NCBI GenBank assembly: GCA_041393815.1 | Contig: JAWKJK010000001.1 | Location: 145,058 to 209,057 of the forward strand | Direction of reading: 5' to 3' | DNA: 64,000 bases | Source: Candidatus Nanopelagicales bacterium | GTDB taxonomy: Bacteria > Actinomycetota > Actinomycetes > S36-B12 > JAWKJK01 | Shown here: piece after piece, positions 42,868 through 59,425 of the stretch | Layout: every line of letters begins with the position of its first letter | Position numbering within the stretch: position 1 is the stretch's first letter | Program-made: the position numbers and the translations under genes | The notes under the pieces: generated by a model | What the model was told of the DNA's origin: nothing | What the model saw: only the letters and a program-made list of their open reading frames with translations | The model's database searches: none

Positions 42868-42885
42868 GCCCCCGGTCTACCGCAC

Positions 42886-44136
42886 TCAGGCCCGCACGAC
42901 CACCGCGATCTCCGGACGCCGCTCCCGGATCCGGGCCACCGCCAGCGCGCCCAGCCCGGCAGCGGCCAGCGCCGCCACGGAGCCCAGGCCCAGCGCCCAC
43001 CGCGGCCCGAGGTGCTCGGCGACCAGTCCGACAAGCGGCCCGCCGATCGGCGTGGTGCCGAACACCGCCATCCCCCACAGCGCCATCACCCGGCCGCGCA
43101 TGTGCGGAGCCGCGGTGAGCTGCAGGGTGCTGTTGCCGGTGGACGCGAAGGCGACGCTGGCCGCGCCCACGGCGACCATGCCGACGGCGGCGAGCGGGAC
43201 GGTGGGGGCGACCGCCACGCCCAGGACAGCCAGGCCGAAGGCCACCGCGGCCGCCGCGAACTGGTGCAGGCCGGTCGTCCGCCGCGCCGCCGACCACAGG
43301 CCGGCCACGACGGCCCCGGCGCCCATGGCCGCGCTGAGCCAGCCGAGGGTGGCCGGACCGGACGCGAACGTCGTGCGGACCAGCGCGGGCAGGGTCACCG
43401 CGAACTCGTAGGTGAGCATCCCCACCAGCGCCATCATCACCAGGACCGACAGCACGACCGGGGTCCGCCGGACGTAGGCGAAGCCCTCCCGCAGCTGCCC
43501 GGGGGCACGGACCTGGACCGGGCTGGGCGACATCGCCGAGCGGTCCATCCGCAGCAGCGCGACGAGCACGACCACGTACGACACCGCGTTGAGCAGGAAG
43601 CAGATCCCGACCCCGACGACCGCGATCAGCACACCGCCGACGGCCGGGCCCACGGCGCGGGACGCGTTCATCACGACCGAGTTCAGCCCGACTGCGTTGC
43701 GCACGGCGTCCGGCGGGACCAGCTCGCGCACCAGCGCCTGCCGCGCCGGCTGCTCCACCACCTGCAGCAGGCCCTGCACGAGGGCCAGCGCCAGCACCAT
43801 CCAGAGCACGACCTGCCCGGTGAGGACGAGCAGGCCCAGTGCCACCGCCTGGGCGGCGAGGGCCAGCTGGGTGACGGCGAGCACCCGCCGGGTGTCGTGC
43901 CGGTCCACCAGCAGGCCGCCGTACGGTCCCAGCAGCAGGGTGGGGACGAACTGCAGCGCCACGACGACGCCGAGCCAGGTCGCGGAGCCGGTGAGGGTGA
44001 GCACCAGCCAGCCCTGCGCGAGGGCCTGCATCCAGGTGCCGGACTGGGACACGGTCTGGCCGACGAACCAGCGCCGGTAGTTGGGGATCGCCAGGGACGA
44101 GAACGTCACGCCCGCCCGGCGGCGCAGCCCGGTCAC
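42886..44136 (-). CDS. MFS transporter (EntS/MFS_3-like)
   Basis: Trimmed to the GTG at 44136, which overlaps the MarR stop as GTGA. FRRW-type start NYRRWFVGQTVSQSGTWMQ followed by 12 predicted TMS. Confidence 0.85.
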   Translation of the reverse strand: MTGLRRRAGVTFSSLAIPNYRRWFVGQTVSQSGTWMQALAQGWLVLTLTGSATWLGVVVALQFVPTLLLGPYGGLLVDRHDTRRVLAVTQLALAAQAVALGLLVLTGQVVLWMVLALALVQGLLQVVEQPARQALVRELVPPDAVRNAVGLNSVVMNASRAVGPAVGGVLIAVVGVGICFLLNAVSYVVVLVALLRMDRSAMSPSPVQVRAPGQLREGFAYVRRTPVVLSVLVMMALVGMLTYEFAVTLPALVRTTFASGPATLGWLSAAMGAGAVVAGLWSAARRTTGLHQFAAAAVAFGLAVLGVAVAPTVPLAAVGMVAVGAASVAFASTGNSTLQLTAAPHMRGRVMALWGMAVFGTTPIGGPLVGLVAEHLGPRWALGLGSVAALAAAGLGALAVARIRERRPEIAVVVRA

Positions 44137-44597
44137 GACCCGCCCCCGTCGTCGGCGTCGACCGGGTCCGGGACGCCGGCCAGCCGCTCCAGCGCGTCCA
44201 GCGCGGTGAGCACGGACTCGACGTCCCGCTCGGTCAGGTCGGTGAGCCGGTCGCGCAGGTACGCCGAGCGACGGGCCCGCAGGCGCCCCAGGGCGCGGCG
44301 GCCGTCGGCCGTCACCGCCACCAGCGCGGCCCGGCCGTCGTCGGGGTCCGGGGTCCGGCGCAGCAGGCCGTCCTCCTCCAGCCGGGCCACCAGGCGGGAC
44401 AGCATCGTGGGGTTCACGGCCTCGATCTCGGCGAGCGCGGACAGCCGCAGCGGGCCGTGCCGGTCCACCGTGGCCAGCGCGGACAGCTGGGTCGGGGTGA
44501 TGCCGCCGCCGGCCGTCGTGCGCAGCCCGCGGGCCAGCCGGCCCACCACCACGCGCAGCCGGTCGGCCGCGACCTCGAGGTCGTCCCGCTCGTCCAT
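44133..44597 (-). CDS. MarR family transcriptional regulator
   Basis: Winged-helix region LSALATVDRHGPLRLSALAEIEAVNPTMLSRLVARLEEDGLLRR. Confidence 0.9.
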   Translation of the reverse strand: MDERDDLEVAADRLRVVVGRLARGLRTTAGGGITPTQLSALATVDRHGPLRLSALAEIEAVNPTMLSRLVARLEEDGLLRRTPDPDDGRAALVAVTADGRRALGRLRARRSAYLRDRLTDLTERDVESVLTALDALERLAGVPDPVDADDGGGS

Positions 44598-44650
44598 CGT
44601 CCATCCGGTGGTCCGTCCGCCGGTCGGTGCGGCCGGTCAGCGGATTTAGT

Positions 44651-44666
44651 TGCTTATCGGCAAGCA
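44651..44666. promoter_or_regulatory. Short inverted repeat TGCTT-N6-AAGCA in an AT-rich divergent spacer; candidate MarR operator
   Basis: tgcttatcggcaagca within atttagttgcttatcggcaagcatcatactc. The arms are only 5 bp. Confidence 0.3.
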
Positions 44667-44766
44667 TCATACTCGGTGTCGGCGGCGCGCGCCAGGGCAT
44701 GCCGGTCGCCGGGATAGCGTGACCACCCCCGGCCGCCCGCAGGCGGCCCGCGTCGCCGGAGGTCCC

Positions 44767-46353
44767 GTGGCCCGCGCCCCCCTCGGCCGCCGGCGACGTC
44801 GCGCGGCGCTGGCCGGACTGCTCGCCGCGGGGCTGCTGGCCGCCACCCCGCTGACCACGCCGGCGAACGCGAATCCGGCCGGCGTCGGCCCCGCAGCCGT
44901 GGCGCCGGCTGGCCCCCGCGTGGCCGCCACCATCTCCGCCGCGGCACCCGCGGACAGCACCCTGCCGGTGGACACCCCGGTGCTCACCTGGTCCGACTGC
45001 GGGTTCGGGCTGCAGTGCGCGTCGTTCCTGGTGCCGCGGTCCTACCAGGACCCCGACGCCGGGACGATCCGGCTGGCGGTCCTGCGCCGCCCGGCGGACC
45101 GCCCGGCCCAGCGGATCGGGTCGCTGGTCGTCAACCCGGGCGGCCCCGGCGGGTCTGGCGTGGACCTGGCCGCTGCGGCCGAGGCGTACCTGTCCCCCTC
45201 CGTCCTGGACCGCTACGACGTCGTCGGCTTCGACCCCCGCGGGGTCGGTCGGTCGGACCCGATCGCCTGCCTCACCGACGCGCAGACCGACCGCTTCCTC
45301 GCCCAGGACCCCACCCCGGACACCGCCACCGAGCGCCGGTCGGTGGCCGCCCTCAGCCGGCTGTTCGGCCGGGCCTGCCAGCAGCGGTCGCCCCGCCTGG
45401 TCGCCCACGTGGGCACGCGCGACGTGGCGCGGGACATGGACCTGCTGCGCGCGGCGCTGGGCGACGAGCGGCTGCACTACCTGGGCTTCTCGTACGGCAC
45501 CTCGATCGGCTCCACGTACGCCGAGCTGTTCCCCGCGCGGGTCGGCCGGTTCGTGCTGGACGGCGCCATCGACCCGTCACTGGACCTGGTCGGGCTGTCC
45601 CTGGCCCAGGCGCGCGGGTTCGAACGGGCGCTGACCCGCTTCGCCGCCGACTGCCCCCGCCACGCCGGCTGCCCGCTCCCCCGCGGAACCGCCGCGGCCG
45701 TGCGGACCGTGCGCTCCCTGCTGCGCGGGCTCGACGCCCGACCGCTGCCGGGCCGGCCGGGCCGGCCGCTGACGGAGGGCCTGGGCACCACCGCGGTCCT
45801 GGGCACGATGTACGACGACACGTCCGGCTGGCCGGCGCTGCGGGACGCCCTGCGGGCGGCGCTGCGCGGCAACGGACGGCCGCTGCTGGACCTGGCGGAC
45901 CTGTTCACCGGCCGGCTGCCGGGCGGGGGCTACGAGTCCAACGGCACCGACGCGCTGTACGCCGTGAGCTGCTGGGACTACCCGGCCACGCCGGGGGTCG
46001 CGGGCACCCGGCGGGATGCGGCACGGTTCGCGCGGGTGGCGCCGACGTTCGGGGCGCCGCTGGCCTGGAGCAACCTGCCGTGCGCGACCTGGCCGGGGCA
46101 CTCCACGGTCCGCCCGCACCGGGTCCGCGCCCCCGGCACCCCGCCGATCCTGGTCGTCGGGACCCGCTACGACCCCGCCACCCCGGTCGGGATGGCCAAG
46201 GCACTGGCCCGGCAACTGTCGCGCGGCGTGTTCCTGGAGTGGGTGGGCGACGGCCACACGGCGTACGGGCGCGGCTCGCGCTGCGTGACCCGGGCGGTCG
46301 ACACCTTCCTGCTGCGCGGCGTCCCGCCGGCCGACGGCACCGTCTGCCGCTGA
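44767..46353 (+). CDS. Secreted alpha/beta hydrolase (tripeptidyl-aminopeptidase-like)
   Basis: Start uncertain: GTG at 44767 has GGAGG 4 nt upstream, and 44719 is also in frame. Tat-like signal GRRRRRAALAGLLAAGLL...PANA and nucleophile elbow GFSYGT. The TTG start at 44650 in the track lies in the promoter region. Confidence 0.8.
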   Translation: MARAPLGRRRRRAALAGLLAAGLLAATPLTTPANANPAGVGPAAVAPAGPRVAATISAAAPADSTLPVDTPVLTWSDCGFGLQCASFLVPRSYQDPDAGTIRLAVLRRPADRPAQRIGSLVVNPGGPGGSGVDLAAAAEAYLSPSVLDRYDVVGFDPRGVGRSDPIACLTDAQTDRFLAQDPTPDTATERRSVAALSRLFGRACQQRSPRLVAHVGTRDVARDMDLLRAALGDERLHYLGFSYGTSIGSTYAELFPARVGRFVLDGAIDPSLDLVGLSLAQARGFERALTRFAADCPRHAGCPLPRGTAAAVRTVRSLLRGLDARPLPGRPGRPLTEGLGTTAVLGTMYDDTSGWPALRDALRAALRGNGRPLLDLADLFTGRLPGGGYESNGTDALYAVSCWDYPATPGVAGTRRDAARFARVAPTFGAPLAWSNLPCATWPGHSTVRPHRVRAPGTPPILVVGTRYDPATPVGMAKALARQLSRGVFLEWVGDGHTAYGRGSRCVTRAVDTFLLRGVPPADGTVCR

Positions 46354-46361
46354 CGGGCCGT

Positions 46362-47231
46362 CTACTCGGGGATGAAGCCCTGGTCGAGGTCCCACGGGCG
46401 GATCGGGCTGTACTGCACCAGCCAGGTCTCGATGTCCTTCATCCACCCGGTGAGGACGAGCACCCCGACGACGACGAAGACCGCGCCGAGGCCGCGCCGG
46501 AACCAGCCGTGCGGGTCCGCCGCCCAGCGGGCGCCGCGGACCGCGCGCTGGCCCAGCAGCGAGACGGCCAGCAGCGTGCCGCACAGCCCCGCGACGTAGA
46601 CCAGGAGCAGCAGCATCCCGTAGGCCGCGTCCGCCGGCAGCACCGTCACGATGACGTAGCCGTACAGCGGGCTGCAGCTGGTGAAGACCGGGCCGAGCGC
46701 GGCGCCGGTGAGGACCTGGCCGAGCACGCCGTCGCGTCGGCGGGCGGCGCCGAGCCGCTGGTTGCTGCGCGCCTGCAGGCCCAGCAGCATCGAGGCCCGC
46801 TCCCACAGGCCGGGGAACAGCGACACCAGGCCGAGCAGGACGAGGAGGCCACCGGCGACCCACTGCCACACCTCGGTCGGGATGTCGATCAGCGCGGTGG
46901 AGGCCTTGAGCAGCAGGGTGAACACCACGATCGACGCGCCGAGGGACGCGGCGATCACGTACGCGCCCCGGCGCGACGCGCGGGCCGCTGTCGTGGGGAC
47001 GGCCCGGGTGTCGGTCCGGGTGCCGCCCGGACCGGTGTCCGGTCCGCCGGTCGTGCTGCCCGATCCGCTTGTCCCCGTGCCCGGTCGGCCCGACCCGGGT
47101 CCGGTCGCCGGCGCGGCACCGGCACCGGCGACCGAGCCGCCGACGATCACCGGCAGCAGCGGCAGCACGCACGGGGCCAGGGTCGTCAGGACCCCGGCGA
47201 CGAACGCACCGACGAGGGCGAGCACGACCAC
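46362..47231 (-). CDS. ccdA: Cytochrome c biogenesis / thiol-disulfide transfer protein CcdA (DsbD family)
   Basis: TM1 LAPCVLPLLP and a later FTSCSPLYG. Start is one of 47225, 47231 or 47267. A Gly/Thr/Ser/Pro-rich insertion follows TM1. Confidence 0.8.
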   Translation of the reverse strand: MVVLALVGAFVAGVLTTLAPCVLPLLPVIVGGSVAGAGAAPATGPGSGRPGTGTSGSGSTTGGPDTGPGGTRTDTRAVPTTAARASRRGAYVIAASLGASIVVFTLLLKASTALIDIPTEVWQWVAGGLLVLLGLVSLFPGLWERASMLLGLQARSNQRLGAARRRDGVLGQVLTGAALGPVFTSCSPLYGYVIVTVLPADAAYGMLLLLVYVAGLCGTLLAVSLLGQRAVRGARWAADPHGWFRRGLGAVFVVVGVLVLTGWMKDIETWLVQYSPIRPWDLDQGFIPE

Positions 47232-47438
47232 CTCCGCTCCCGGCGCGACCCACTGCCGGCCGCGCACCGGTGACCATGACACCGTGGATCGGCGCCGGGG
47301 GCGACCCCTGCGGCCCCGTCGTACGCGGTCCGTAAGGGGTCGGTAACCGCCGCGGACGTGCGCCTGGTGCCCGTCCCGGGTTGTGATGGAGACCCGCGGG
47401 TCGACCGGCCCGGCGGACCGACGCCCCTCGGAGGAACC

Positions 47439-47999
47439 ATGCGTGCGCGACGTGCGACCGCCCTCGCCGCCACCACCGTCCTGTCCCTCGGCCTGGCCGC
47501 GTGCGCCTCCGGCGGCACGTCCGACGCCGGCTCCGCCTCGCCGTCCACGCCCGCCACCTCGGCTCCGGCCTCGTCGGCCGCCGCCACGTCGGAGCCCCCG
47601 GCGCCCTCGCCCTCGCCGCCCGGGTCCTCGTCCGCCGCGGCCACCTCGAAGCCCCCGGCCGAGACGTCGCAGCCGGCTCCCGCGGCGGGGGCGTACATCG
47701 ACCTGGCCGCGTACGAGGCGGGCAAGCAGATGTACGACGCGGGGACCGTCGTGCTGTTCTTCAACGCGACGTGGTGCCCCACCTGCCAGGAGGCGACGGG
47801 CAACTTCGAGGCCGACCCCGGCGGGTTCGGGCCCGGCGTCACCGTCGTGAGCGTCGACTACGACAGCAACACCGACCTGCGCAAGAAGTACGGGATCACC
47901 TACCAGCACACGTTCGTGCAGGTGGACGCCGACGGCAACGAGCTGGCCACCTGGTCCGGCTCGTCCACCCCGGCCGAGGTCGCCGAGCAGCTGGCCTGA
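47439..47999 (+). CDS. Thioredoxin-fold lipoprotein
   Basis: ATG at 47439 with GGAGGA upstream. Lipobox LGLAAC, a Pro/Ser/Ala linker and the redox motif WCPTC. Confidence 0.8.
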   Translation: MRARRATALAATTVLSLGLAACASGGTSDAGSASPSTPATSAPASSAAATSEPPAPSPSPPGSSSAAATSKPPAETSQPAPAAGAYIDLAAYEAGKQMYDAGTVVLFFNATWCPTCQEATGNFEADPGGFGPGVTVVSVDYDSNTDLRKKYGITYQHTFVQVDADGNELATWSGSSTPAEVAEQLA

Positions 48000-48008
48000 G
48001 GCCGGCGC

Positions 48009-48040
48009 GCTGCCGGCCCGGCAGGCCCCGGGCCGGCAGC
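48009..48040 (+). terminator. 12-bp perfect stem-loop 9 nt after the thioredoxin stop
   Basis: gctgccggcccg-gcaggccc-cgggccggcagc. Confidence 0.5.
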
Positions 48041-48043
48041 GTC

Positions 48044-48100
48044 GAGTGCTCGCGGGTGGGGGTTCCGGGACGGTCCTGGAACCCCCACCCGCGAGCACTC
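48044..48100. repeat. 57-nt palindrome with 23-bp perfect arms between convergent genes
   Basis: gagtgctcgcgggtgggggttcc-gggacggtcct-ggaacccccacccgcgagcactc. The mirrored track ORFs both start MLAGGGS. Confidence 0.85.
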
Positions 48101-48158
48101 GTTGGGGGGTGTGGGTGGTTGGGGGTGCGCGGGCGGCTGTCGGTGCGGTGCTGCGGCC

Positions 48159-49169
48159 TCAGACCGAGGCGGGCAGCCGTACCTCGAAGCAGCAGCCCGG
48201 GCCCTCGTTGCGCACGTCGACGCGCCCGCCGTGCGCCTCCACCACTCCGCGCACGATCGCCAGGCCGAGCCCGGCCCCCTCGCCCGCGCCCGGCGTGCGC
48301 GCGTCCGTGCCGCGCCACCCCGCCTCGAACAGCCGCTCGAGGTCCGCCGCCGAGATCCCGCCGCAGGCGTCCCGCACCGACACCACCGCGGCGTCGTCCT
48401 CCGTACGGGCCGACACCACGACGCTGCCGTCGGCAGGGGTGTGGCGTACGGCGTTGACGACCAGGTTGGCGAGGGCGCGCGACAGCTCGCGGGAGTCGGC
48501 GGTCACGGCGACCGGGCCGTCCGCGGACCCGGTCAGCACCACGCCGCGCGACTGGGCCAGCGGCTGGGTGGACGCCAGCGTGTCCGAGACCAGGTCGGCC
48601 AGGGACACCGTGTCCAGCGCCAGCCGGAGGGTGCCGGCCTGCAGCCGGGACAGCGCCAGCAGGTCGTCGACCATGCCGGACATCCGGTCCACCTCGGCGC
48701 GCATCTGGGCGTGGTAGCGGGCCGGGTCGTCCGCGACCCCGTCCTCCAGCGCCTCCGCCATGGCACGCAGGCCGGCCAGCGGGGTGCGCAGGTCGTGCGA
48801 CGCCCAGGCGACCATCTCGCGTCGGGACTCCTCGACCTCGCGGTCCCGTTCGCGGGCCGCCTGCTCCTCGGCCACGGTGCGGGTCAACGCGGCGACCCGG
48901 CGGGCCACCAGGACGCCGAACAGCAGGGCGACGGGGACGGCCGCGCCGAGGACGAGCAGGACCAGCGTGGTGTCGGTCGGCGACAAGAACATGGCCCGCG
49001 AGCTGGCGAGCACGCCGGCGGCGACCGACGCCACGACGACGACGGGCGAGGCGATCGCGGCCGCCGCCACGGACCGACGGGCGAGCACCGCGACGCCGAG
49101 CGCGCCGAGCGCGCCGACGGCGGCCGCGGTGCCGGCCGACAGCAGGACGGCGGGCAGTTCCGGTCCCAT
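48159..49169 (-). CDS. Sensor histidine kinase (intramembrane-sensing type)
   Basis: Short hydrophobic N-terminus without a periplasmic domain. H-box [11 protein letters not shown]-box [10 protein letters not shown] and G-box GAGLGLAIV. Confidence 0.9.
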
Positions 49170-49196
49170 GGTGGTCCCGCTAGCTCCGCCGGCCGG

Positions 49197-49256
49197 CCGT
49201 CATGAGGTCCGCCGTCATGACATCCGCCGTCACGAGGTCCGCCGTCACGACGCGGA
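49197..49256 (-). repeat. Four tandem 15-bp units spanning the response-regulator stop codon and the RR-HK spacer
   Basis: Sense strand: TGACGGCGGACCTCG TGACGGCGGATGTCA TGACGGCGGACCTCA TGACGGCCGG... The TGAs are at 49245, 49230, 49215 and 49200, all in the RR frame. Confidence 0.9.
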
Positions 49257-50000
49257 CCGGTCCGGCTCGGTCGGGTCCCACCGGTAGCCGACCCCCCACA
49301 CCGTCACCAGCCGGGTCGGGGCGGACGGGTCCCGCTCGACCTTCTCCCGCAGCCGGCGTACGTGCACCGTGACGGTGGACTGGTCGCCGTACTCCCAGCC
49401 CCAGACCTCCCGCATCAGGTCCGCGCGGGAGAACGCCCGGCCGGGGCGGGCCAGCAGGTGGGCCAGCAGGTCGAACTCGCGGGAGGTCAGCAGCAGTTCC
49501 GTGCCGCCCCGAGTGGCCCGGTGGGCGACGGTGTCGACGACGAGGTCGCCGTCGCGCAGGGGTCCGGCGGCCGCGGGCGCCGCTCCCGCCCCGCCGTCGC
49601 CCTCGCCGTCGCCGTCGTCGGTGCCGGGGGCGGACGGCGCCGAGCGGCGCAGCACCGACTGGACCCGCAGCACCAGCTCGCGCGGGCTGAACGGCTTGGT
49701 CACGTAGTCGTCGGCACCCACCTCGAGGCCGAGCACCCGGTCCTCCTCCTCGCCGCGGGCGGTGAGCATGACCACGGGCAGGTCGCCGCGGTCCGCGCGC
49801 AGCCGCCGGCAGACCTCCAGGCCGTCGATCCCGGGGAGCATGAGGTCGAGCACCACCAGGTCCGGCCGGTGCTCGGCGGCCGCGGCCAGCGCGGAGGGAC
49901 CATCGGCGGCACGCACGGTCCGCAGGCCGGCCCGGGACAGGTAGCCCGCCACCACCTCGGACACGGTGGCGTCGTCGTCGACGACCAGGACGCAGGACAT
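49245..50000 (-). CDS. OmpR/PhoB-type response regulator
   Basis: Trimmed to the ATG at 50000 (MSCVLVVDDD...). DLVVLDLMLPGIDG, KPF, and a winged helix TVHVRRLREK...VWGVGYRW. A Gly/Asp-rich linker is inserted between the domains. Confidence 0.9.
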   Translation of the reverse strand: MSCVLVVDDDATVSEVVAGYLSRAGLRTVRAADGPSALAAAAEHRPDLVVLDLMLPGIDGLEVCRRLRADRGDLPVVMLTARGEEEDRVLGLEVGADDYVTKPFSPRELVLRVQSVLRRSAPSAPGTDDGDGEGDGGAGAAPAAAGPLRDGDLVVDTVAHRATRGGTELLLTSREFDLLAHLLARPGRAFSRADLMREVWGWEYGDQSTVTVHVRRLREKVERDPSAPTRLVTVWGVGYRWDPTEPDRSAS

Positions 50001-50105
50001 GCCGCCCAGGGTAGGCGGAGGCGACGGGTGCCGCCGGGCCGCGCGGCCCACGTTCCGCGGACCGTAAGGAGCCCCCGGGACCCGGTCCGCGTCCCCCATC
50101 CGCAC

Positions 50106-50162
50106 CCGGTGGAACGTACGACCACCCAGGAGCGCGCGCGGGCTGGTCCTGCGTTCCACCGG
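50106..50162. repeat. GGTGGAAC...GTTCCACC palindromic element, copy D
   Basis: ccggtggaacgtacgaccac ... ctggtcctgcgttccaccgg, between the hydrolase stop and the RR start. Confidence 0.65.
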
Positions 50163-50251
50163 CGGGGACGGACGGGGAGCGCGGGACGGGTGGGCGCCCT
50201 GGGGCGCGTGCGCACGGGGTCGGCGGTGCGCCCGGGCGGCCGCACGTCCGG

Positions 50252-51091
50252 TCAGGTCGTGGACAGCGGGCGGGGGGCCAGCGTCGCCAGCCGGTGCGGC
50301 TCGGTGAGCAGCCACCCGTGGTTGCCCTCGACCACCCGGACCCGCACCCCGTCACGCTTGTGCAGGGACTGCAACCGGGCCGGCGGCACGATGCCGTCCC
50401 GGTCGGCCAGCAGCAGCGTGATCCGCGCCCCCGTGGCCGCCAGCGCGGCGATCTCGTCGACGAGGTCGGAGTGCTTGGCGGCGACGCCCGCGGAGGCCAC
50501 CGCCCGGGGGTGCCGGACCAGGTTCGGCAGCGCGTCCACGACCCGGGTCAGGTTGGAGCGCCCGACCTCGTGCCGCAGCCCCGCCACCAGGCCGGCCCAC
50601 GACGTCACTGCGGAGCCGGCCCCGCCGATCGGGCAGACCAGCGTGATCTCGGAGAACAGGTCCGGTCGGCGCGCGGCGGCCTCCACGACCACCCCGCTGC
50701 CGTACGAGTGCGCGACCACCGGCACCGGCCCCTCCAGCGCGAGGCACTCGACCGCCTCGGCGATCCGCTCGGCCGTGCGGCCCAGCGTCCCGCGGCCCCC
50801 GCGGACGGGGGTGGAGTCGCCGAACCCGGGCAGGCTCGGCGCGAGCACGTGCCAGCCGACCGTGGCCAGCGCCTCGATGGCGGGTGCGTACCCGCGCGGG
50901 CTGAGCCCCCAGCCGTGCACGAACACCAGCGGCGGACGGTCGGGCTGCCCGACCCCGAACACCTCGACCCGGGTGCCGGACCGGTTGGTGCCGTCGAACC
51001 AGACCGCGAACTGCTCCCAGGCGACCGGGACGGCGCGGCGGGACAGGTGACCCGAGGCCGGCTCCCCGACGGGAAGCGGCGACCGCGGCAT
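50252..51091 (-). CDS. Alpha/beta hydrolase
   Basis: Trimmed to the ATG at 51091 (MPRSPLPV...). LVFVHGWG and nucleophile elbow AHSYGSG. Confidence 0.75.
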   Translation of the reverse strand: MPRSPLPVGEPASGHLSRRAVPVAWEQFAVWFDGTNRSGTRVEVFGVGQPDRPPLVFVHGWGLSPRGYAPAIEALATVGWHVLAPSLPGFGDSTPVRGGRGTLGRTAERIAEAVECLALEGPVPVVAHSYGSGVVVEAAARRPDLFSEITLVCPIGGAGSAVTSWAGLVAGLRHEVGRSNLTRVVDALPNLVRHPRAVASAGVAAKHSDLVDEIAALAATGARITLLLADRDGIVPPARLQSLHKRDGVRVRVVEGNHGWLLTEPHRLATLAPRPLSTT

Positions 51092-51236
51092 CGGCACGCT
51101 CACGAGGCCACCGCCGTCCCTCCGTCGACTCGTCCGGGCGTCTCCCGACACTACGGCGTACGGTCGCCCGAACACGCCGCAGGGCCCCCGCGCGTCGCGG
51201 CCGGAGCAGCCCCCGAGGCACCGGACGAGGCTCCGG

Positions 51237-52130
51237 TCAGTCCTCCTCGGCGCCCCGCTCGTCCATCCGGGCCAGGAACTGCTCCACCTGAGCACCGATC
51301 TCGTCGGCGGTGGGCACCTCGGCCAGCGAGGCCTGGGTGTCGTCGTACTGCCGCTCCAACGTGGCCAGCACGACCTGGAACTCCTCGTTCCCGGCCAGCT
51401 GGGACGCGATCTCGGCGTCGGCGCGGGCGGCGGCGGGCTCCAGCTCGGTGGCCGGCAGCGCAAGCCCGGTGGCCTCCGACAGCGCGTCCAGCAGGGTCAT
51501 GACGGCCCGTGGGTAGTCGAACTGCACCAGGTAGTGCGGCACGTGCGCCGCCAGCCCCACCACGGGGACGCCGCGCCCACCGAGCACGAGCTCCAGCATC
51601 CCGCCGACGTGGCCGGGCACCTCGAGGTCCCCCAGTGCGCTGGGGTGCGCGGCCAGGACGTCGGCCTCGGTGCCGTGCCAGGTGATCCCCATCGGTCGGG
51701 TGTGCGGCGCCGGCCACGGCACGGCCGCAAGCCCGGCGACCAGCCGTACGTCGAACCGCTCGACCAGGTCCGCGACGGCCGCGACGAAGGCCCGCCAGCG
51801 GTAGTCGGGCTCGGGCCCCTCCAGCAGCAGGAACGGGCGGCCGTCCGCGTCGGTCACCTCGTGCAGCCGGATCTCGGGGATGTCGATGGTCGCGAAGTGG
51901 TCGGAGCGGAACTCCATCCGGGGCCGGCGCGCCCGGTAGTCCAGCAGCGCGTCCGCGTCGAAGCGGGCCAGCTCGCGGTGCGGCCGCGTCCTGAGCAGGT
52001 GGTCGACGGCCAGCCGGCCGGCCGACCCCGCGTCGAGGAACCCGGTGAACGCGTGCACGAGGACCCGCCGGTCCGTCTCGACCGGCTCCCCCAGCAGCTC
52101 GTACAGCTCGTGCGACGCCACCGTCGGCAC
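51237..52130 (-). CDS. PAC2 (proteasome assembly chaperone 2-like) family protein
   Basis: Start is the GTG at 52130 or 52121, with AGGAGAGGAAGG upstream. LVHAFTGFLDAGSAG, LLLEGPEPDYRW and VPHYL, with an acidic C-terminus. Confidence 0.8.
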   Translation of the reverse strand: MPTVASHELYELLGEPVETDRRVLVHAFTGFLDAGSAGRLAVDHLLRTRPHRELARFDADALLDYRARRPRMEFRSDHFATIDIPEIRLHEVTDADGRPFLLLEGPEPDYRWRAFVAAVADLVERFDVRLVAGLAAVPWPAPHTRPMGITWHGTEADVLAAHPSALGDLEVPGHVGGMLELVLGGRGVPVVGLAAHVPHYLVQFDYPRAVMTLLDALSEATGLALPATELEPAAARADAEIASQLAGNEEFQVVLATLERQYDDTQASLAEVPTADEIGAQVEQFLARMDERGAEED

Positions 52131-52293
52131 CCTTCCTCTCCTGCGGTTCGCCCCGTCGGGGCTGCCCTGACCGACACCGATGCGCCGTACGGACCCGCCC
52201 AGCATCCGTCGCGCGCCGGCCCGGCGCCAGCCATGACACGTCAACACGCGCAGCACCCGCCGGTCTTCCCGTCCTCGGTGGGATGCTGGCCGC

Positions 52294-53307
52294 GTGGCAG
52301 ACGTCCTCGGCGGAGCGGAGGGTGCGCATCGGCATGCGAGTGCACCCCGGCCGAGGCTGACCGGGTTCGCCTGGCTGTCCATCGCCGCCGCCGTCGTCAC
52401 GATCGCGCTGAAGTCCGGCGCCTACCTGATCACCGGGTCGGTCGGCCTGCTCTCCGACGCGATGGAGTCGCTGGTCAACCTGGCCGCCGCGATCCTGGCG
52501 CTGGTGGTGCTGCGGGTCGCCGCGAAGCCGGCCGACGACTCTCACCACTTCGGGCACGGCAAGGCCGAGTACTTCTCCGCGTTCGCCGAGGGCGTGCTCA
52601 TCGCGATCGCCGCGGCGCTCATCGGCTGGACCGCGATCCAGCGGCTGATCAATCCCCAGCCCCTGGAGGAGATCGGGATCGGTCTGGCCATCACGCTGGT
52701 GGCCACCGCCATCAACGGGGTGGTCGGCCTGGTCCTGGTCCGCGCGGGCAACCGGCACCGCTCGCTGACGCTGGTCGCCGACGGCAAGCATCTGCTCACC
52801 GACGTCTGGACCTCCGTCGGCGTCGTGGTGGCCGTGCTGCTCGTCGGCCTCACCGGGTGGCTGGTGCTGGACCCGCTGGTCGCGCTCGCCGTCGGCGCGA
52901 ACATCCTGGTCACGGGCGCCTTGCTGGTCCGGCGCGCCACCCGGGGCCTGATGGACCACTCCCTCCCGCCCGCCGACGTCGAGGCGGTGCTGCGGGTGCT
53001 GCGCTCGGTCGTGGCCGCCGAGCCCGAGGTGGGATTCCACGCCATCCAGACCCGCGAGTCCGGCCACGAGCGGTTCGTGTCCATGCACGTGCTGGTCCCG
53101 GGCGGGTGGACCGTGACCCGCGGGCACGACCTGCTCGAGCAGGTCGAGGAGCGGATCGTGCTGGCGCTGCCGCACGCGCACGTGCACACCCACCTCGAGC
53201 CGCGCGAGGACCCGAGGTCGTACGCCGACGCGGTGGCCGGGCTCGCGGTGCTGTCCGCGGACGGGACCGAGCCGGGCGAGGACGCCGGTCCGGAGCGGCG
53301 GAGCTGA
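52294..53307 (+). CDS. Cation diffusion facilitator family transporter
   Basis: SVGLLSDAMESLVN, HHFGHGKAEYF, HLLTDVWTS and a C-terminal cytoplasmic domain. GTG start, possibly later. Confidence 0.9.
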   Translation: MADVLGGAEGAHRHASAPRPRLTGFAWLSIAAAVVTIALKSGAYLITGSVGLLSDAMESLVNLAAAILALVVLRVAAKPADDSHHFGHGKAEYFSAFAEGVLIAIAAALIGWTAIQRLINPQPLEEIGIGLAITLVATAINGVVGLVLVRAGNRHRSLTLVADGKHLLTDVWTSVGVVVAVLLVGLTGWLVLDPLVALAVGANILVTGALLVRRATRGLMDHSLPPADVEAVLRVLRSVVAAEPEVGFHAIQTRESGHERFVSMHVLVPGGWTVTRGHDLLEQVEERIVLALPHAHVHTHLEPREDPRSYADAVAGLAVLSADGTEPGEDAGPERRS

Positions 53308-53353
53308 CGCCACGGCGGACCTGGCACCGGGTTCCCGCCCGGTCGGTGCCGTG

Positions 53354-53395
53354 CCGACCGTCAGGGGGCGTCAACCGACCGTCAGGGGGCGTCGC
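53354..53395 (-). repeat. Two tandem 21-bp units duplicating the stop-codon region of the metalloprotease gene
   Basis: ccgaccgtcagggggcgtcaa / ccgaccgtcagggggcgtcgc (19/21 identical). The real stop is tca at 53382-53384 and the copy is at 53361-53363. Confidence 0.85.
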
Positions 53396-54404
53396 CGCCG
53401 AGGCAGGGCCCCCGGCCGAGCCACCACAGCCCGGCCAGGTCGCCGTCCTGCAGGTCGCGGACGTCGGTGGTCTGCGGGTACATCAGCTGGCCGCGGTCCG
53501 GCACGTGCCCGAGCCCGACCACGTGCGCGAGCTCGTGCAGCACCACCGCCCGGGCCAGCGCCACGCCGCCGGGCATCGTGGTCAGCTGCCGCAGCTGCGG
53601 GGCGTCGAGGGCGATCTGGCCGGACACCGCGACCCGGACACCGCCGATGAGGACCGACTGCGGCCCCGCGACCGCCGCGTTCGGCCCCTCGAGGTCGGCC
53701 ATCTCCGGCGCCCACGACCAGGCCACCAGGATCGGCACCCAGCGCTGGCCGTACCGATCCGGCTGGTAGGCCGACCGCTCCTCGCGCGGGGCCTCGTCGG
53801 TCGGGCCCTCGTACACGAACCGCAGCCCGGTGGCCTCCGAGATCCGCGCGATCGCCCAGTCCAGCGCCTCCGCCCCGAACCGGGGCTGCCCGTCGGGCCT
53901 GATCACGTACCGCAGCTCCCGGCACGGGCTGAACGTGACCGGCTCCGCGGAGTCCTCCTGGGTCTGCAGGTACGCGAACGACGTGGCCGTCGGGGCGGGG
54001 TCCGGGGCCTGCAGCAGCGGCTCCAGCGACGTGGTGCCCGACGCGGAGGGCGAACCGCCGTGCCCGAACGGGTCCCCGCTGGTGGCGGCGGCCGCGGAGG
54101 AGAGGGTCGCGCTCGGGGTGGGGGATCCCTGGCCGGCCGCCGACCCGGAGGCGGCGGGTGCGGACGGGGAGCCCACGGCGCTTCCGGCCACGGCCGAGGG
54201 TCTCTGGGATCCGTTCGCGGCCGCATCGGGCAGGCCGGGATCGGCGGACCGGGCTCCCAGGGCGACCCCGGCGAGGACGGCGGCCCCGGCCGCGGCGGCG
54301 AGCACCGCGACCACACCGGCCCGCCCGCGGCCCCGCCGACGGCCGGGCGGCGGGAGGACGTCGTACCGGTCCACCACCGAACCACGGTAACCGCCGTACG
54401 GCAC
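53382..54404 (-). CDS. Membrane-anchored matrixin-like zinc metalloprotease
   Basis: N-terminal TM helix (VVAVLAAAAGAAVLAGVAL), a Ser/Ala/Pro linker and a zinc motif HELAHVVGLGH followed by a Met-turn-like LMYP. Confidence 0.75.
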   Translation of the reverse strand: MPYGGYRGSVVDRYDVLPPPGRRRGRGRAGVVAVLAAAAGAAVLAGVALGARSADPGLPDAAANGSQRPSAVAGSAVGSPSAPAASGSAAGQGSPTPSATLSSAAAATSGDPFGHGGSPSASGTTSLEPLLQAPDPAPTATSFAYLQTQEDSAEPVTFSPCRELRYVIRPDGQPRFGAEALDWAIARISEATGLRFVYEGPTDEAPREERSAYQPDRYGQRWVPILVAWSWAPEMADLEGPNAAVAGPQSVLIGGVRVAVSGQIALDAPQLRQLTTMPGGVALARAVVLHELAHVVGLGHVPDRGQLMYPQTTDVRDLQDGDLAGLWWLGRGPCLGGDAP

Positions 54405-54470
54405 CCCCGGTGGGGGCTAGGGTGCGCCGGTGCCCGCATGAACGCCGCGTGAACGGCACCGGACCGGCAG

Positions 54471-56405
54471 GTGGCCATGACGCAGACGACTCCTGAGGAC
54501 GAGGTCCGCACCCTCGGCGACCGCGTCCGCGACCGGGTCCCCGCCCTGACCTGGCTGCCCGCGTACCGCTGGTCCCGCATCAGCCGCGACCTGGTCGCGG
54601 GTCTGGTCGTCGCCGCGTTGGCGGTGCCGCAGGCGCTGGGCTACGCCGGCATCGCGGGCGTGCCGGTCCAGGTCGGCCTGTACGCCATCCCCGGGGCGCT
54701 GGTGATGTACGCCCTGCTCGGGACCTCGCGGACCCTGTTCCTCGGTCCGGTCTCGACCGTCTCGGTGCTCTCCGGAACGCTGGTCGCTGGGATGCTCGGG
54801 TCTGCGGCCCAGGACCCGGCGCGGGCGATGGCCCTCACGTCGGCGCTGGCGTTGTCGACCGGGCTCGTGCTGCTCGTCGCCGGCCTGCTCCGGCTGGGCT
54901 GGGCCGCGGAGTTCCTGTCCCGCCCGATCATCACCGGCTTCGTGTTCGGGCTGGTCATCCTCATCATCCTCGGCGAACTGCCGTCCCTGCTGGGGCTGCC
55001 CGCGGAGTCCGGCGGGGTGCTCGACCGGATCGGGTCCCTGGTCAGCCACATCACCGACCTGAACCCGCTCACGGCCGCCATCGGCGTCGGCTCGCTGGCC
55101 GTGCTGTTCCTCGGCGCCAGGTTCGCCCCTCGGTTCCCCTGGGGCCTGCTGCTCGTCGTGGCGGGCATCGTCGCGTCCAACGCCCTGGACCTGGCCGGTC
55201 GGGGCGTCGCCGTCATCGGGTACGTGCCCGACGGGCTGCCGCCGATCGGACTGCCCGGGGTCGGGGTCGGCGACTTCCCCGCGATCCTGGCCGGCGGGGC
55301 CGCACTGGCGCTGGTCGGGCTGGGCGAGGGCCTCAGCGCGGCCCGGCTGTTCGCGTCCCGCTCGGGAGCGCCGGTGTCCGCGGACCAGGAGTTCCTGGCC
55401 ACCGGGGCGGCCAACCTCGCGTCGGGGTTCACCGGCGGGCTCGGCGTCGCGGGCAGCCTGTCGAAGACCGCGGCCGCGGATCGGTCCGGGGCCCGCAGCC
55501 AGATGTACAGCCTCGTGGCCGCCGCGGTGGTCGTCGTCGTCCTGCTGGCCGCCGCGGGGCTGCTGTCCGGGCTGCCTCGTACGGTGCTGTCCGCGATCGT
55601 GATCCAGGCGGTGTGGGGGCTGATGGACGTCCCGGCGATGCTGCGCTATCGCCGGATCCGCCGCAACGACTTCGTCTCCGCGCTGGCTGCGCTGCTCGGC
55701 GTGCTGGTGCTCGGGCCGTTGTACGGCCTGCTCGCGGCGGTCGCGCAGTCGGTGCTCGGGCTGGTCTACCGCTCCAGCCGGGTCGACATCGACGTCATGG
55801 GCAAGGTCCCGGGTGAGAAGGCCGCCTGGGGCAGCGTGGCCCGACATCCGGACCGGGTGACCGTGCCCGGCATCCTCGTCCTGCGGCTGGACTCGCCACT
55901 GTTCTGGGTCGACGCCGCCCAGGTGCGCGACGCGGTCCTCGCGGAGGTGGCCCGCAACCCCGGCACCGTCGCGCTGCTCCTCGACCTCGAAGCCACCAAC
56001 CAGCTCGACACCACCAGCGTGGACATGATGTTCGAGCTGCTGAAGGACCTGCGCGAGCAGGGGGTACGGCTGTACCTGGTCCGGGTGTTCCACCGCGCCC
56101 GGGGGGTGTTGCGGAAGTCCGGCTTCGAGGAGGCGCTCGGCCGCGACCGGATGTGGCACAGCATCTCCCAGGGGGTGAAGGCCGCCCGCAAGGACCTCGG
56201 GCTCAAGGGTCAGGCAACGCCGACGGAGGGCGCGCCGGAACTGGCAAGGGTCGGGGCCGAGCACGCGGCGGACGGGACGGACTCCGACGGCGACGAGGGC
56301 CCCGACTACGACCCGCACGAGGAGCGGATCGCGGTGGACCACCACCACGACGGGGACGACGACGAGGACGAGAACGAGCGCCCCGCCGCCCGACGGACGC
56401 GGTAG
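54471..56405 (+). CDS. SulP family inorganic anion transporter with STAS domain and acidic/His-rich tail
   Basis: RDLVAGLVVAALAVPQALGYA, STAS ILVLRLDSPLFWV...LLLDLEATNQLDTTSV, and a tail ...DSDGDEGPDYDPHEERIAVDHHHDGDDDEDENE. Start at 54471 (GTG) or 54477 (ATG). Confidence 0.9.
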   Translation: MAMTQTTPEDEVRTLGDRVRDRVPALTWLPAYRWSRISRDLVAGLVVAALAVPQALGYAGIAGVPVQVGLYAIPGALVMYALLGTSRTLFLGPVSTVSVLSGTLVAGMLGSAAQDPARAMALTSALALSTGLVLLVAGLLRLGWAAEFLSRPIITGFVFGLVILIILGELPSLLGLPAESGGVLDRIGSLVSHITDLNPLTAAIGVGSLAVLFLGARFAPRFPWGLLLVVAGIVASNALDLAGRGVAVIGYVPDGLPPIGLPGVGVGDFPAILAGGAALALVGLGEGLSAARLFASRSGAPVSADQEFLATGAANLASGFTGGLGVAGSLSKTAAADRSGARSQMYSLVAAAVVVVVLLAAAGLLSGLPRTVLSAIVIQAVWGLMDVPAMLRYRRIRRNDFVSALAALLGVLVLGPLYGLLAAVAQSVLGLVYRSSRVDIDVMGKVPGEKAAWGSVARHPDRVTVPGILVLRLDSPLFWVDAAQVRDAVLAEVARNPGTVALLLDLEATNQLDTTSVDMMFELLKDLREQGVRLYLVRVFHRARGVLRKSGFEEALGRDRMWHSISQGVKAARKDLGLKGQATPTEGAPELARVGAEHAADGTDSDGDEGPDYDPHEERIAVDHHHDGDDDEDENERPAARRTR

Positions 56406-56524
56406 CGGGCGCGCCGAGCGGGACACGCCGCGCCGGATCGGTCCGAGGCCGTGCGCGACGCCGGGCTGGTTTGGGAGGCTGGGCCCGACGCCGCAGCGAG
56501 CGGCGACAACCAGGGGAGAGCCAG

Positions 56525-57628
56525 ATGAGCATGGGCACGGGCGGGACGCCGGGACCCGGGTGGTACGCCGCACCGGAGGGTGACGGACGACTGCGCTGGT
56601 GGGACGGCGCCCGCTGGACCGAGCACTACGCCGAGCGGCCGACACCCGCAGCCCAGCAGCCTCCGGCCGCGGCTCCCCCGGCCGCGGCTCCCCCGGCAGC
56701 GGCACCGCCGGCACAGGCTCCCCCGGCCGCCGCACCCCCGGCCGCCGCTCCCCCGGCCGCCGCACCGCCGGCACAGGCTCCCCCGGCCGCCGCTCCCCCG
56801 GCACAGGCCCCCCCGGCCGCATCTCCGCCGCCCGCATCGACGCCTCCTGCCGGCGCGGCCCCCGCAGCAGCGGCCGCGGCGGCACCCGCAGCCGGCACCT
56901 CAGCGCCGCCGGCAGCAACTCCGCCGGCACAGCCTCCGGCCAGCCCGCCCGCGCAGCCACCCGCCTCATCCCCGGGGTCGCAGTCCTCGGGTGGTTCGGC
57001 CGCCCCCGCCGCCGCTGCCGCGGCCGGCGCGGCTGCAGGGGCGGCTGCCGGCGCGGCGGCATCACCGCCGCCCGCGGCCGGGCCCCCGGCGAGCGCACCT
57101 CCCGCCGCCACACCGCCGGCGGCGCAGGCCCCCTCCGGTCCGCCGCCCAGCGCGCCCGCGCTGCAGCCCGCGGCCCAGCCCGCATCGGCGGTTCCTCCTG
57201 CGGCGGGCCCTCCGGCCGCCGGCGCCCCCGGGCCAGGTGGGTACCCCCAGGCCGGCTACCCCCAGGCCGGCTACGCCCAGCAGGTGCCCGCCGGCGCCCC
57301 GCCGAAGAAGAAGCGCACCGGCCTCATCGTCACCCTGGTCGTGCTGGTGGTCGTCCTGCTGGCCCTCGCGGGCGCGGGCATCTGGCTGGTGCTGAAGAAC
57401 GCCAAGGTGCTCGACACCACCAAGCTGGAGACCCAGATCGCGGCGGAGCTCACCACCCGGATCGGCGACACCATCACCGTCGACTGCCCGGCCGACCAGC
57501 CGGTGGAGACGGGCTACACGTTCGAGTGCGTCGCCAGCGACAGCTCGGGCACCAAGCGCGTCGTCGTCATCACCGAGGACGATGACCAGGGCAACGTGAC
57601 CTGGGAGCTGACGGACCGCGAGCCCTAG
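56525..57628 (+). CDS. DUF2510 N-terminal / Pro-Ala-rich linker / TM / DUF4333 C-terminal protein
   Basis: Trimmed to the ATG at 56525 with AGGGGAGAG upstream. GWYAAPEGDGRLRWWDGARWTEH, about 230 aa of P/A low complexity, a TM helix LIVTLVVLVVVLLALAGAGIWLV, and the C-terminal ...TITVDCPADQPVETGYTFECVA... Confidence 0.75.
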   Translation: MSMGTGGTPGPGWYAAPEGDGRLRWWDGARWTEHYAERPTPAAQQPPAAAPPAAAPPAAAPPAQAPPAAAPPAAAPPAAAPPAQAPPAAAPPAQAPPAASPPPASTPPAGAAPAAAAAAAPAAGTSAPPAATPPAQPPASPPAQPPASSPGSQSSGGSAAPAAAAAAGAAAGAAAGAAASPPPAAGPPASAPPAATPPAAQAPSGPPPSAPALQPAAQPASAVPPAAGPPAAGAPGPGGYPQAGYPQAGYAQQVPAGAPPKKKRTGLIVTLVVLVVVLLALAGAGIWLVLKNAKVLDTTKLETQIAAELTTRIGDTITVDCPADQPVETGYTFECVASDSSGTKRVVVITEDDDQGNVTWELTDREP

Positions 57629-57652
57629 GACCGACCGACCCCGACCTCCCGA

Positions 57653-57690
57653 GGGGGGAGTGGATCTTCCGCGGAAGATCCACTCCCCCC
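57653..57690. terminator. Perfect 38-nt palindrome (17-bp stem) 25 nt after the stop; probable bidirectional terminator
   Basis: ggggggagtggatcttc-cgcg-gaagatccactcccccc. Confidence 0.6.
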
Positions 57691-57760
57691 TTCCCTCACG
57701 CGTCACCCCCACGTCACCCCCGCCGCTCGCGACTCCACGCACCGGGTCCACTCACCCCAC

Positions 57761-57831
57761 GACGGAATGAGTCTGGGCGTCGTTTGGACGCCCGATTCCG
57801 GCCGGTAAGCAACGCCCAGACTCATTCCGTC
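57761..57831. repeat. 20-bp perfect inverted repeat with a 31-nt spacer; function unknown
   Basis: gacggaatgagtctgggcgt ... acgcccagactcattccgtc. The spacer holds a competing hairpin gggcgtc-gtttg-gacgccc that re-uses part of the left arm. Confidence 0.7.
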
Positions 57832-57900
57832 CGAGGATCGGGGGGCACGGTCGTCAGCGGGGCCGGCGGGGCCGGGAATAGGCGGAGCGCGTTTCGACCG

Positions 57901-57998
57901 GGGTGGGCCGGTCGGGGTGGGCCGGTCAGGGTGGGCCGGTCAGGGTGGGCCGGTCAGGGTGGGCCGGTCAGGGTGGGCCGGTCCGGGTGGGCCGGTCA
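57901..57998 (-). repeat. Seven tandem 14-bp units; the last unit contains the stop codon of the M14 peptidase gene
   Basis: gggtgggccggtc[a/g/c] x7. Sense strand CCCACCCTGACCGG. The stop is tca at 57996-57998. Confidence 0.95.
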
Positions 57999-58928
57999 GG
58001 GGTGGTCGACGATGCGGGTCGAGACCCGCAGGATCGCGGCCACGTTGCGGTCGACGAGGTCCTGGGACACGTACGACGGCAGCTCCACGGTGATGGCCCA
58101 GCCGGGGAAGGTCGCGTTGTACCAGCCGGTCAGGGTCCCGCCGCAGGGCCCGCTGCACGACGCGACCGAGGGGCGCAGCCCGATCCAGCGGGCCAGCTTG
58201 CGCGCCCACGCCCTGGTCTTGTCGCCGGTGACGTCGATCAGCCCGAACGGCTGGTGGTAGCTGAGGATCGCGTCCGGCCGCAGCACCCGCAGGAACCGCA
58301 CCGCGGCCTTCGACTCCGGCTCGCTCAGCGGGCGCGGACCCGGCCAGGTGACGCGGGACCCGGTGGAGCCCAGCCAGTTGTACGGGAAGTTCCGGTTGAG
58401 GTCCACGCCGCGGGCGTTGCGGCGACCGCCGACCCGGGCGCCGTCGGGGTTGAGCGTGGAGATGGTCCAGATCTGGACGCCGCGCGGCGCCGTCTCCCGC
58501 CGCAGCGCCGACACCACCCGGCGCCCGGCCGGCTCGCTGCCGTGGATCTGCCCGAGGACCAGGACCACTCGGGTGGCGTTGCGGTTGCCCAACCGGCGGG
58601 CGACGATCTCGCGACCCTGGACCGAGGTGCCCACCCGCACCACCCGGGGCAGCGCGGCCACCGGGTCGGCCGGCTCCGCCGCAACCGACGCGGACGCGGA
58701 CGGGTCCGCAGACGCGTTCGGATCACCCGAGGGCGAGCCCGCCGTTCCCGAGGCCGGCCCGGACACCGTGGGGTCACTCGGCTCCGCGGGTGCCGCCGCC
58801 ACCGCCGGCAGCACGAGCAACCCGGCCGCCAGGCCCGCGGCAACCCCGCCCGCCAGCACGCCGCGCAGCACTCCCCGGAGGGGACCGGGCAGGCCGAGGG
58901 CCCGGCCGGTGACCGGCCGGGCTCTCAC
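57996..58928 (-). CDS. M14 family zinc carboxypeptidase (secreted)
   Basis: Trimmed to the GTG at 58928. Signal-like N-terminus, QIHGSEPAG (HxxE), DLNRNFP and the later ILSYHQP. Confidence 0.8.
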   Translation of the reverse strand: MRARPVTGRALGLPGPLRGVLRGVLAGGVAAGLAAGLLVLPAVAAAPAEPSDPTVSGPASGTAGSPSGDPNASADPSASASVAAEPADPVAALPRVVRVGTSVQGREIVARRLGNRNATRVVLVLGQIHGSEPAGRRVVSALRRETAPRGVQIWTISTLNPDGARVGGRRNARGVDLNRNFPYNWLGSTGSRVTWPGPRPLSEPESKAAVRFLRVLRPDAILSYHQPFGLIDVTGDKTRAWARKLARWIGLRPSVASCSGPCGGTLTGWYNATFPGWAITVELPSYVSQDLVDRNVAAILRVSTRIVDHP

Positions 58929-58942
58929 CTCGCGCGAGCGGG

Positions 58943-59425
58943 TCAGCCGTCCGCCTTCGGGGCCGCGTCCTCGGCGGCCTTCTGCGACTCCTCCGCCGCG
59001 GTCTTCGCGGCGTCGGCGGCGGTGTCGGCCACCTCCTGCGCGGTCTCCGCGGTCTTCTTGGCCGCCTTCGACGCCGCGCTGGACGTCTTCTCCGCCGCCT
59101 TGGTCGCCGCGGAGCCGGCCTCGGCCGCGGCACCGCTGACGGCGTCGGCGGCCTGCGCCACCCGCTCGCCGGCGGCCTCGCCCGCCGTCGAGGCGGCGTC
59201 CGACACCTTCTGGGCGGCCTTGTCGGCCGCCTTCGCCGCGGACGTGGCCGCACCGGACGCGGCGTCGGCGGCCTTGGTCGCAGCGCCGGACACCGAGTCG
59301 GAGACCGAGCCGGCCCAGGCCCCGACGCTGTCGCCCACGGCCTCGGCCTCGCCGCGACGCTTGAGCATGATCACGCCCACCGCGGCCCCGGCGACCGCCG
59401 CGGCAACCAGGAGCATCTTCTTCAT
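58943..59425 (-). CDS. Membrane-anchored Ala/Lys/Glu-rich repeat protein (LEA/apolipoprotein-like)
   Basis: ATG MKKMLLVAAAVAGAAVGVIML followed by about 130 aa of amphipathic repeats (AATKAADAASGAATSAAKAADKAAQK...). The codon third positions are GC-rich despite low complexity. Confidence 0.6.
   Translation of the reverse strand: MKKMLLVAAAVAGAAVGVIMLKRRGEAEAVGDSVGAWAGSVSDSVSGAATKAADAASGAATSAAKAADKAAQKVSDAASTAGEAAGERVAQAADAVSGAAAEAGSAATKAAEKTSSAASKAAKKTAETAQEVADTAADAAKTAAEESQKAAEDAAPKADG

Follow-up and report, generated by a model that had tools for sequence, protein, structure and literature searches.

Tandem arrays at the stop codons of a GC-rich actinobacterium: probable short duplications tolerated at the 3′ ends of genes

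Why should a gene end inside a tandem repeat? The question is raised by the gene of an M14 zinc carboxypeptidase, whose last codons, GAC CAC CCC TGA (TGA at 57996-57998), are themselves the first, slightly diverged unit of an array of 14-bp repeats, and by other genes nearby that end in a similar manner. Do such arrays constitute a signal designed around the stop codon, or are they the traces of a mutational process that is tolerated at this point of the gene? We regard it as probable that they are ordinary short tandem duplications, partly expanded to small VNTR-like repeats, and that they are tolerated at the 3′ ends of genes. The DNA analyzed, here called the window, is a stretch of 64,000 nucleotides (positions 145058-209057 of the largest contig) from a genome of 4.04 Mb in 10 contigs, with ∼72-74% G+C; feature coordinates are those of the window.

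Arrays of the window

A preliminary description of this DNA listed five arrays and proposed that the units of each repeat the stop of the upstream gene. The arrays were recovered with Tandem Repeats Finder together with a layout of the sense strand (Table 1), and all five are present where that description had placed them. The proposal about their units stands for four of the five, in which a copy of the stop belongs to the repeat, and fails for the fifth, which begins 37 nt past the stop. The gene names that had been given are upheld by Pfam, with the families Peptidase_M14, Response_reg plus Trans_reg_C, Peptidase_M10, and ADP_ribosyl_GH. Two further arrays, at an epimerase gene and at a beta-lactamase-fold gene, were absent from the description.

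Table 1. Tandem arrays and associated features, in window coordinates
Feature	Position	Unit and copies	Strand	Remarks
M14 array	57901-58001	14 bp x 7.2, 96% match	-	Tandem Repeats Finder; sense unit CCGGCCCACCCTGA
M14 zinc carboxypeptidase gene (MpaA-like murein peptide amidase)	57996-58928		-	310 aa; Pfam PF00246
Response-regulator array	49196-49247; to 49259 with diverged first unit	15 bp x 3.5; ~4 units with diverged first unit	-	Tandem Repeats Finder, layout
M10 array	53354-53393; perfect repeat over 53354-53395	21 bp x 1.9, 100% match; perfect 21 bp x 2	-	Tandem Repeats Finder, layout
ARH array	30082-30202; internal repeat at 30190-30216	40 bp x 3.0; internal 14 bp x 1.9	-	Tandem Repeats Finder, layout
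Fifth array	29802-29862	14 bp x 4.4	+	Stop not included; Tandem Repeats Finder, layout
Epimerase array	33253-33297	20 bp x 2.4	-	Over TGA 33293-33295 of NAD-dependent epimerase gene
Beta-lactamase-fold array	40465-40502	20 bp x 1.9	+	Begins exactly on TGA of metallo-beta-lactamase-fold gene
17-bp segment	53296-53312, with flank to 53319		+	Single-copy in window, tandemly duplicated in run X11

In the response-regulator array, the diverged first unit lies in the last codons of the gene (TGA at 49245-49247), and the repeats occupy most of the 75-nt spacer ahead of the ATG of the histidine-kinase gene (49169). The M10 array spans the TGA (53382-53384) of an M10 (matrixin-like) metalloprotease gene, while at the ARH gene (Pfam PF03747) the stop (30228-30230) is reached by a diverged partial unit that carries the GGTGAC stop region of the gene. 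The fifth array follows the stop (29763-29765) of a 135-aa ORF without a Pfam family, and it sits in a convergent spacer of 462 nt (29766-30227).

Are these repeats real? Because the response-regulator, beta-lactamase-fold, and M10 arrays, as well as the first three units of the M14 array, recur in contigs from independent public short-read runs, the window arrays are not assembly artefacts; the M10 array is crossed gap-free by contigs of runs X1, X6, and X14. Taken as a repeat, each window array lies far beyond chance. As for the position, five stop-covering arrays are observed in the window when the geometry of the spacers predicts 2.3, and the co-occurrence of arrays and stops is only slightly above the expectation from short spacers.

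The window also contains repeats within genes. One is a perfect in-frame coding array of 15 bp x 6.6 (26534-26632) in the minus-strand gene 25626-26837, and another is an in-frame coding array of 12 bp x 13.2 (1217-1375) in a gene ending at 1747; both likely result in length-variable proteins. In addition, a long plus-strand ORF (56153-57628) holds nested 15/30/60-bp repeats of C-rich units (CCGGCCGCGGCTCCC) at 56663-56835. The codon-usage caller accepted only the last 114 codons of this ORF, which may encode a protein of low complexity or may be spacer DNA called in error.

Distribution of arrays around genes

How are arrays of this kind distributed over the whole genome? Genes were called by codon usage, with the long ORFs of this genome as the training set, giving 3541 genes and a coding density of 91%, and 1184 non-overlapping arrays were collected at a repeat-finder score of at least 50. 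About 88 arrays cover a stop codon. Within coding sequence the period is a multiple of three in 775 of 862 arrays, and arrays with other periods are found mainly outside genes. Intergenic arrays also have periods that are multiples of three more often than the expected one third (128 of 241), an excess that may stem from small ORFs that lack annotation, from coding sequence in decay, or from bias in detection.

With regard to the two sides of a gene, arrays whose period is not a multiple of three reach a coverage of 24-46 per kb within 100 nt downstream of stops, and of 7-18 per kb upstream of starts. Spacers between convergent genes are the richest, with 1.39 arrays per kb, followed by co-directional (0.79) and divergent (0.61) ones. 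Two null models were used to judge these figures. Under the genome-wide null, in which each array may enter genes by at most one unit, 59 stops are covered against 32.7 +/- 5.7 expected, and 14 starts against 40.7 +/- 6.1. Under the within-spacer null, in which each array is shuffled solely inside its own spacer, 60 stops are covered against 50.4 expected (sd 5.1, one-sided p = 0.023), and array-covered starts number 9 where 19.9 are expected between co-directional genes, and 5 where 9.4 are expected between divergent ones. Coverage of start codons falls short of expectation by a factor of 2-3, a depletion that may be somewhat overstated because called starts are uncertain, while stops are robust, being fixed by the reading frame. 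A looser first null, which allowed arrays to lie up to 90% inside genes and set 75 stop-covering arrays against 72.7 expected, had been judged too loose and was replaced by these two.

A positional bias toward the 3′ side of genes, on whose existence the preliminary description had made its case depend, is thus present genome-wide; both this bias and the avoidance of starts are real, and the asymmetry between stops and starts offers a simple readout of constrained intergenic DNA. The anchoring of arrays to the stop itself is another matter, and is mostly a product of short-spacer geometry. Spacers bordered by a stop have a median length of 56-66 nt, and since they are so short, and the arrays 40-100 nt long, an array will often overlap the neighboring stop; once it does, every unit carries the stop tetranucleotide. 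In this manner slippage, tolerance, and short spacers together give the appearance of a signal designed around stops. The same caution applies to compact GC-rich genomes in general, where short arrays will often overlap stops and each of their units will carry the stop context.

What, then, of the stop-covering excess, small (19%) but persistent after the geometric control? One answer would be that stop codons are a mutational hot spot, with duplications arising preferentially at the ends of genes; the sites at which translation and transcription terminate might, for example, provoke them by collisions or pausing. The proximal edges of arrays are indeed densest between -15 and +20 nt of stops, at 11-17 per 10,000 positions compared with 4-9 farther downstream. 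However, array coverage is maximal 20-50 nt past the stop and not on it, and a small excess is to be expected anyway if the rest of the spacer, with its terminators and the promoter and ribosome-binding site of the next gene, is constrained. To our knowledge, no mechanism ties DNA slippage to stop codons, and we consider a hot spot of this type very unlikely.

Origin of the arrays and relation to known repeats

If the arrays are tolerated duplications, how would they arise and why would they last? They could form by replication slippage between short GC-rich direct repeats, i.e., by microhomology-mediated tandem duplication, and events of this kind probably occur throughout this high-GC genome. 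Inside genes, only units of a multiple of 3 nt would persist, and duplications over start codons, ribosome-binding sites, and promoters would be purged. From a few codons before the stop up to the next functional element, instead, a duplication would be free of cost. One that spans the stop would keep the first copy, and hence the protein, intact and would leave the second copy untranslated; arrays may survive just past genes because the duplicated stop leaves the protein unchanged. We infer slippage as the origin of each array, and neutrality as the condition under which it is kept.

An event of this type can be seen by comparing strains. Near-identical DNA occurs in metagenomes of bioreactor sludge, wastewater, sediment, and soil (eight studies, none of the listed runs being classed as RNA), and contigs of four runs were compared over 40400-58400. 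In run X11, a sediment metagenome from another study, a perfect 17-bp insertion behind 53295 copies the 17-bp segment of Table 1. The TGA of the plus-strand gene 52294-53307 (53305-53307, a TGAC stop) lies within this segment, whose first 7 nt, CGGCGGA, recur behind it in the window. The X11 insertion is a natural polymorphic tandem duplication that spans a stop and bears the classic microhomology signature. Partial units point the same way: among 89 perfect arrays, 67% have a partial terminal unit of at least 3 nt, compared with ∼9% by chance, in a test that the score threshold of the repeat finder biases. The preliminary description had considered slippage nucleated at a common sequence; slippage at short repeats is supported by the X11 duplication and by the partial units, whereas the role of TGAC as the nucleating sequence is not.

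The arrays display other hallmarks of tandem duplication as well. They are head-to-tail copies of a local, single-locus sequence, with units confined to their own arrays; a microhomology arm flanks the segment duplicated in X11, and partial units occur in perfect arrays. They are also depleted where they would be disruptive, with multiples of three prevailing in coding sequence, starts depleted, and convergent spacers richest.

Beside the presence/absence polymorphism of X11, copy numbers were compared at two arrays. The response-regulator array is identical in three independent short-read contigs, and the beta-lactamase-fold array has the same copy number in 11 such contigs, with one SNP (L032). 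Neither array varies in copy number among the strains compared, a constancy that is silent on long-term stability because these strains are nearly clonal. As VNTRs, the arrays may be of use in typing strains of this wastewater actinobacterium.

Is the phenomenon new? The preliminary description named no precedent for the repeated duplication of gene ends, yet the enrichment past stops (PMC12418385) and the neutral duplication (PMC13167724) have both been published. Microhomology is the main route of tandem duplication in bacteria, and most of its products are neutral, with coding regions cleared of them (PMC13167724); where the arms are long and GC-rich, duplication is ∼1000-fold more likely (bioRxiv 10.64898/2026.02.28.708716). 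The arrays described here resemble microhomology-mediated duplications and VNTRs in their units of <50 bp, in the partial terminal unit, and in the 7-nt direct repeat beside the polymorphic duplication. Likewise, they are depleted in coding sequence unless their period is a multiple of three, and they occur in a GC-rich context that favors the process. What neither of these two studies singles out are the stop-spanning events and the asymmetry between stops and starts, which are quantified here for one genome. The metagene profile of a survey of 5374 prokaryotic genomes shows tandem repeats to be commoner past stops and ahead of starts than inside coding sequence (PMC12418385, Fig. 5). The present repeats agree with it in being rare in coding sequence and more frequent past stops; they differ in that the survey reports enrichment on both sides of genes, whereas downstream coverage here is ∼3 times the upstream coverage. 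The window arrays are further instances of already known tandem duplications.

A different parentage might be sought in a mobile or factor-bound family of repeats at gene boundaries, like the mycobacterial MIRUs or the REP elements. As with MIRU-VNTR loci, tandem units of an actinobacterium are found here at gene boundaries within operons: the response-regulator array separates the two members of a two-component operon and has ATGA, a stop/start overlap motif, in its units. The first MIRU locus to be described (senX3-regX3), by Supply and co-workers in 1997, is reportedly the spacer of a two-component operon as well, and the genome under study does hold true dispersed palindromic families. However, the units of 14-40 bp are shorter than those of MIRUs, which measure ∼40-100 bp, and in each case the first unit is the terminal sequence of the gene itself, which points to local duplication and not to insertion.

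MIRUs are apparently mobile repeats, dispersed as one family, and link small ORFs with start codons (PMC12548453). In contrast to such dispersed and related units, the arrays here are mutually unrelated, and each derives from the end of its own gene. Exact-unit searches and 10-mer sharing among the 178 stop-proximal arrays did not reveal related units at many loci, with 10-mers shared in just 134 of 15,753 pairs. Nor do the arrays provide a small ORF that overlaps the flanking start or stop: successive units of 14, 20, or 40 nt fall in different frames, ATGA occurs only in the 15-nt response-regulator unit, and the last unit of that array does not abut the kinase ATG. The arrays belong to no dispersed family, and the M14 array matched no Rfam family and yielded no RNA structure. 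The further suggestion of the preliminary description, recognition sites for an unknown factor, finds no footing in units that are locus-specific and share no motif. We see hardly any chance that the arrays belong to a family of this sort.

A dispersed repeat of another nature lies at 57748-57836. It is an intergenic palindromic element of 75-90 nt, present at 52 loci genome-wide, nearly all of them non-coding. Its arms, like CGACGGAATGAGTC...GACTCATTCCGTCG, flank an inner hairpin, and inner arm segments are found in either of two versions, often complementary, TCTGGGCGT/ACGCCCAGA or TCCCCACGT/ACGTGGGGA. The element has no match in Rfam, and it looks like a REP/MITE-like family.

Stop context, termination, and the M14 locus

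Does the TGAC shared by the arrays carry information? TGA ends 78% of the genes, TGAC is found at 1614 of the 3541 stops (45.6%), and the commonest 7-mer at stops is TGACCGG. At the 88 genes with a stop-covering array, the proportion of TGAC is 53%, which does not depart from the background (p = 0.16), and the special context claimed at first dissolves. The same holds for the claimed bias toward the sense orientation, since arrays that begin 1-60 nt downstream, and therefore exclude the stop, show 16 sense and 24 antisense occurrences of TGA. What the arrays share in TGAC is the commonest stop signal of the genome, its modal context, which is duplicated together with the stop; it is neither a nucleating nor a recognized sequence. 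Over the 3541 stops, C is the following base in 57% of genes and the one after that in 55%, while farther downstream the value is ∼40%; genome-wide, the 3′ flanks have C over G on the sense strand, with a skew of 0.07.

Repeated stops could also have been selected as backup terminators, UGA-C being a leaky context, as the preliminary description suggested. The 15-bp and 21-bp arrays do add in-frame TGAs after the response-regulator and M10 stops, but an in-frame stop is added by only 28 of the 88 stop-covering arrays, the frame-rotating periods of 14, 20, and 40 nt being unsuited to it. TGAC is evidently not avoided, because it is the commonest context (46% of genes), and arrays are not enriched after it. 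An in-frame stop within the next 10 codons follows 8.6% of TGAC genes, compared with 12.7% of other TGA genes and with 12.5% in the +2 frame, so that genes with the supposedly weak context have fewer backups and not more. Selection for backup stops is therefore scarcely credible.

Another resemblance to a functional element concerns the M14 array. Do C-rich, G-poor arrays, and this one above all, act as putative Rho-loading (rut) tracts that have been kept for termination? Like rut sites, the M14 array is C-rich, G-poor, and unstructured, and it extends for ∼95 nt directly after the stop. Its RNA has 60% C and 22% G, close to the ∼57% and 21% that had been estimated beforehand, and shows no significant fold (z = -0.94). 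The array has no match in Rfam, a promoter/terminator scan gave no hit in it, and there is no intrinsic terminator nearby. Furthermore, stop-proximal arrays have a C skew of 0.12 compared with 0.07 in ordinary 3′ flanks (p = 0.02), the sense-strand 3′ flanks of this genome are C-rich in general, and rut tracts would be useful to a high-GC actinobacterium with few U-tailed terminators.

On the other hand, the additional C skew is small and the other window arrays are not notably C-rich. In the response-regulator unit (CGGCGGACCTCATGA) G exceeds C, and the unit at 29802 is mixed, so that neither has the C-rich, G-poor composition of rut sites. The response-regulator array is internal to an operon, and termination at this point would prevent transcription of the kinase gene. 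A duplicated piece of C-rich flank would look alike without any selection, and the periodicity is explained by duplication. Rho loading as the reason for the arrays appears quite improbable to us. Somewhat broader is the reading in which slippage prefers the ends of genes, or else the M14 array and others rich in C are retained to load Rho or to act as spacers in place of the missing intrinsic terminators; it would account for both the small stop-covering excess and the slight C skew, and we hold it to be unlikely. Should the residual excess or the C-rich M14 tract turn out to be functional, this would bear on transcription termination in high-GC bacteria; the present data do not require a function.

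For the M14 array, tolerated duplication remains the preferred explanation, and the protein tells in which order things probably happened. Its exact 310-aa sequence is on record, and the homologues with a name come from actinobacterial MAGs. In an alignment with the homologues, the protein ends together with the conserved domain, which implies that the array was added behind a pre-existing stop. The M14 unit is found nowhere else in the genome. In 30 species genomes, the nearest available and all placed in different families of this order, the alignment is confined to the interior of the M14 coding region and does not include its end. Six Logan contigs encode the identical M14 protein, and all of them end 42 nt into the array; as k=31 contigs they stop in a k-mer cycle and for this reason give no copy count, an example of how such arrays break short-read assemblies. 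An exact scan of JGI metagenome contigs with a 25-nt pattern from the end of the M14 gene gave no match.

Two minor observations concern the surroundings of this gene. In the alignment, several M14 homologues have long Pro/Thr-rich C-terminal tails that are absent from the protein of this genome, and the array behind the stop contains CCCACCC, which would encode Pro-Thr; the array might be the decayed remnant of such a tail. Finally, a 160-aa ORF without a Pfam family (58943-59425, minus strand) is located 14 nt upstream of the M14 gene. It lies in a different frame of a 536-aa ORF, and in independent contigs it appears as a separate gene.
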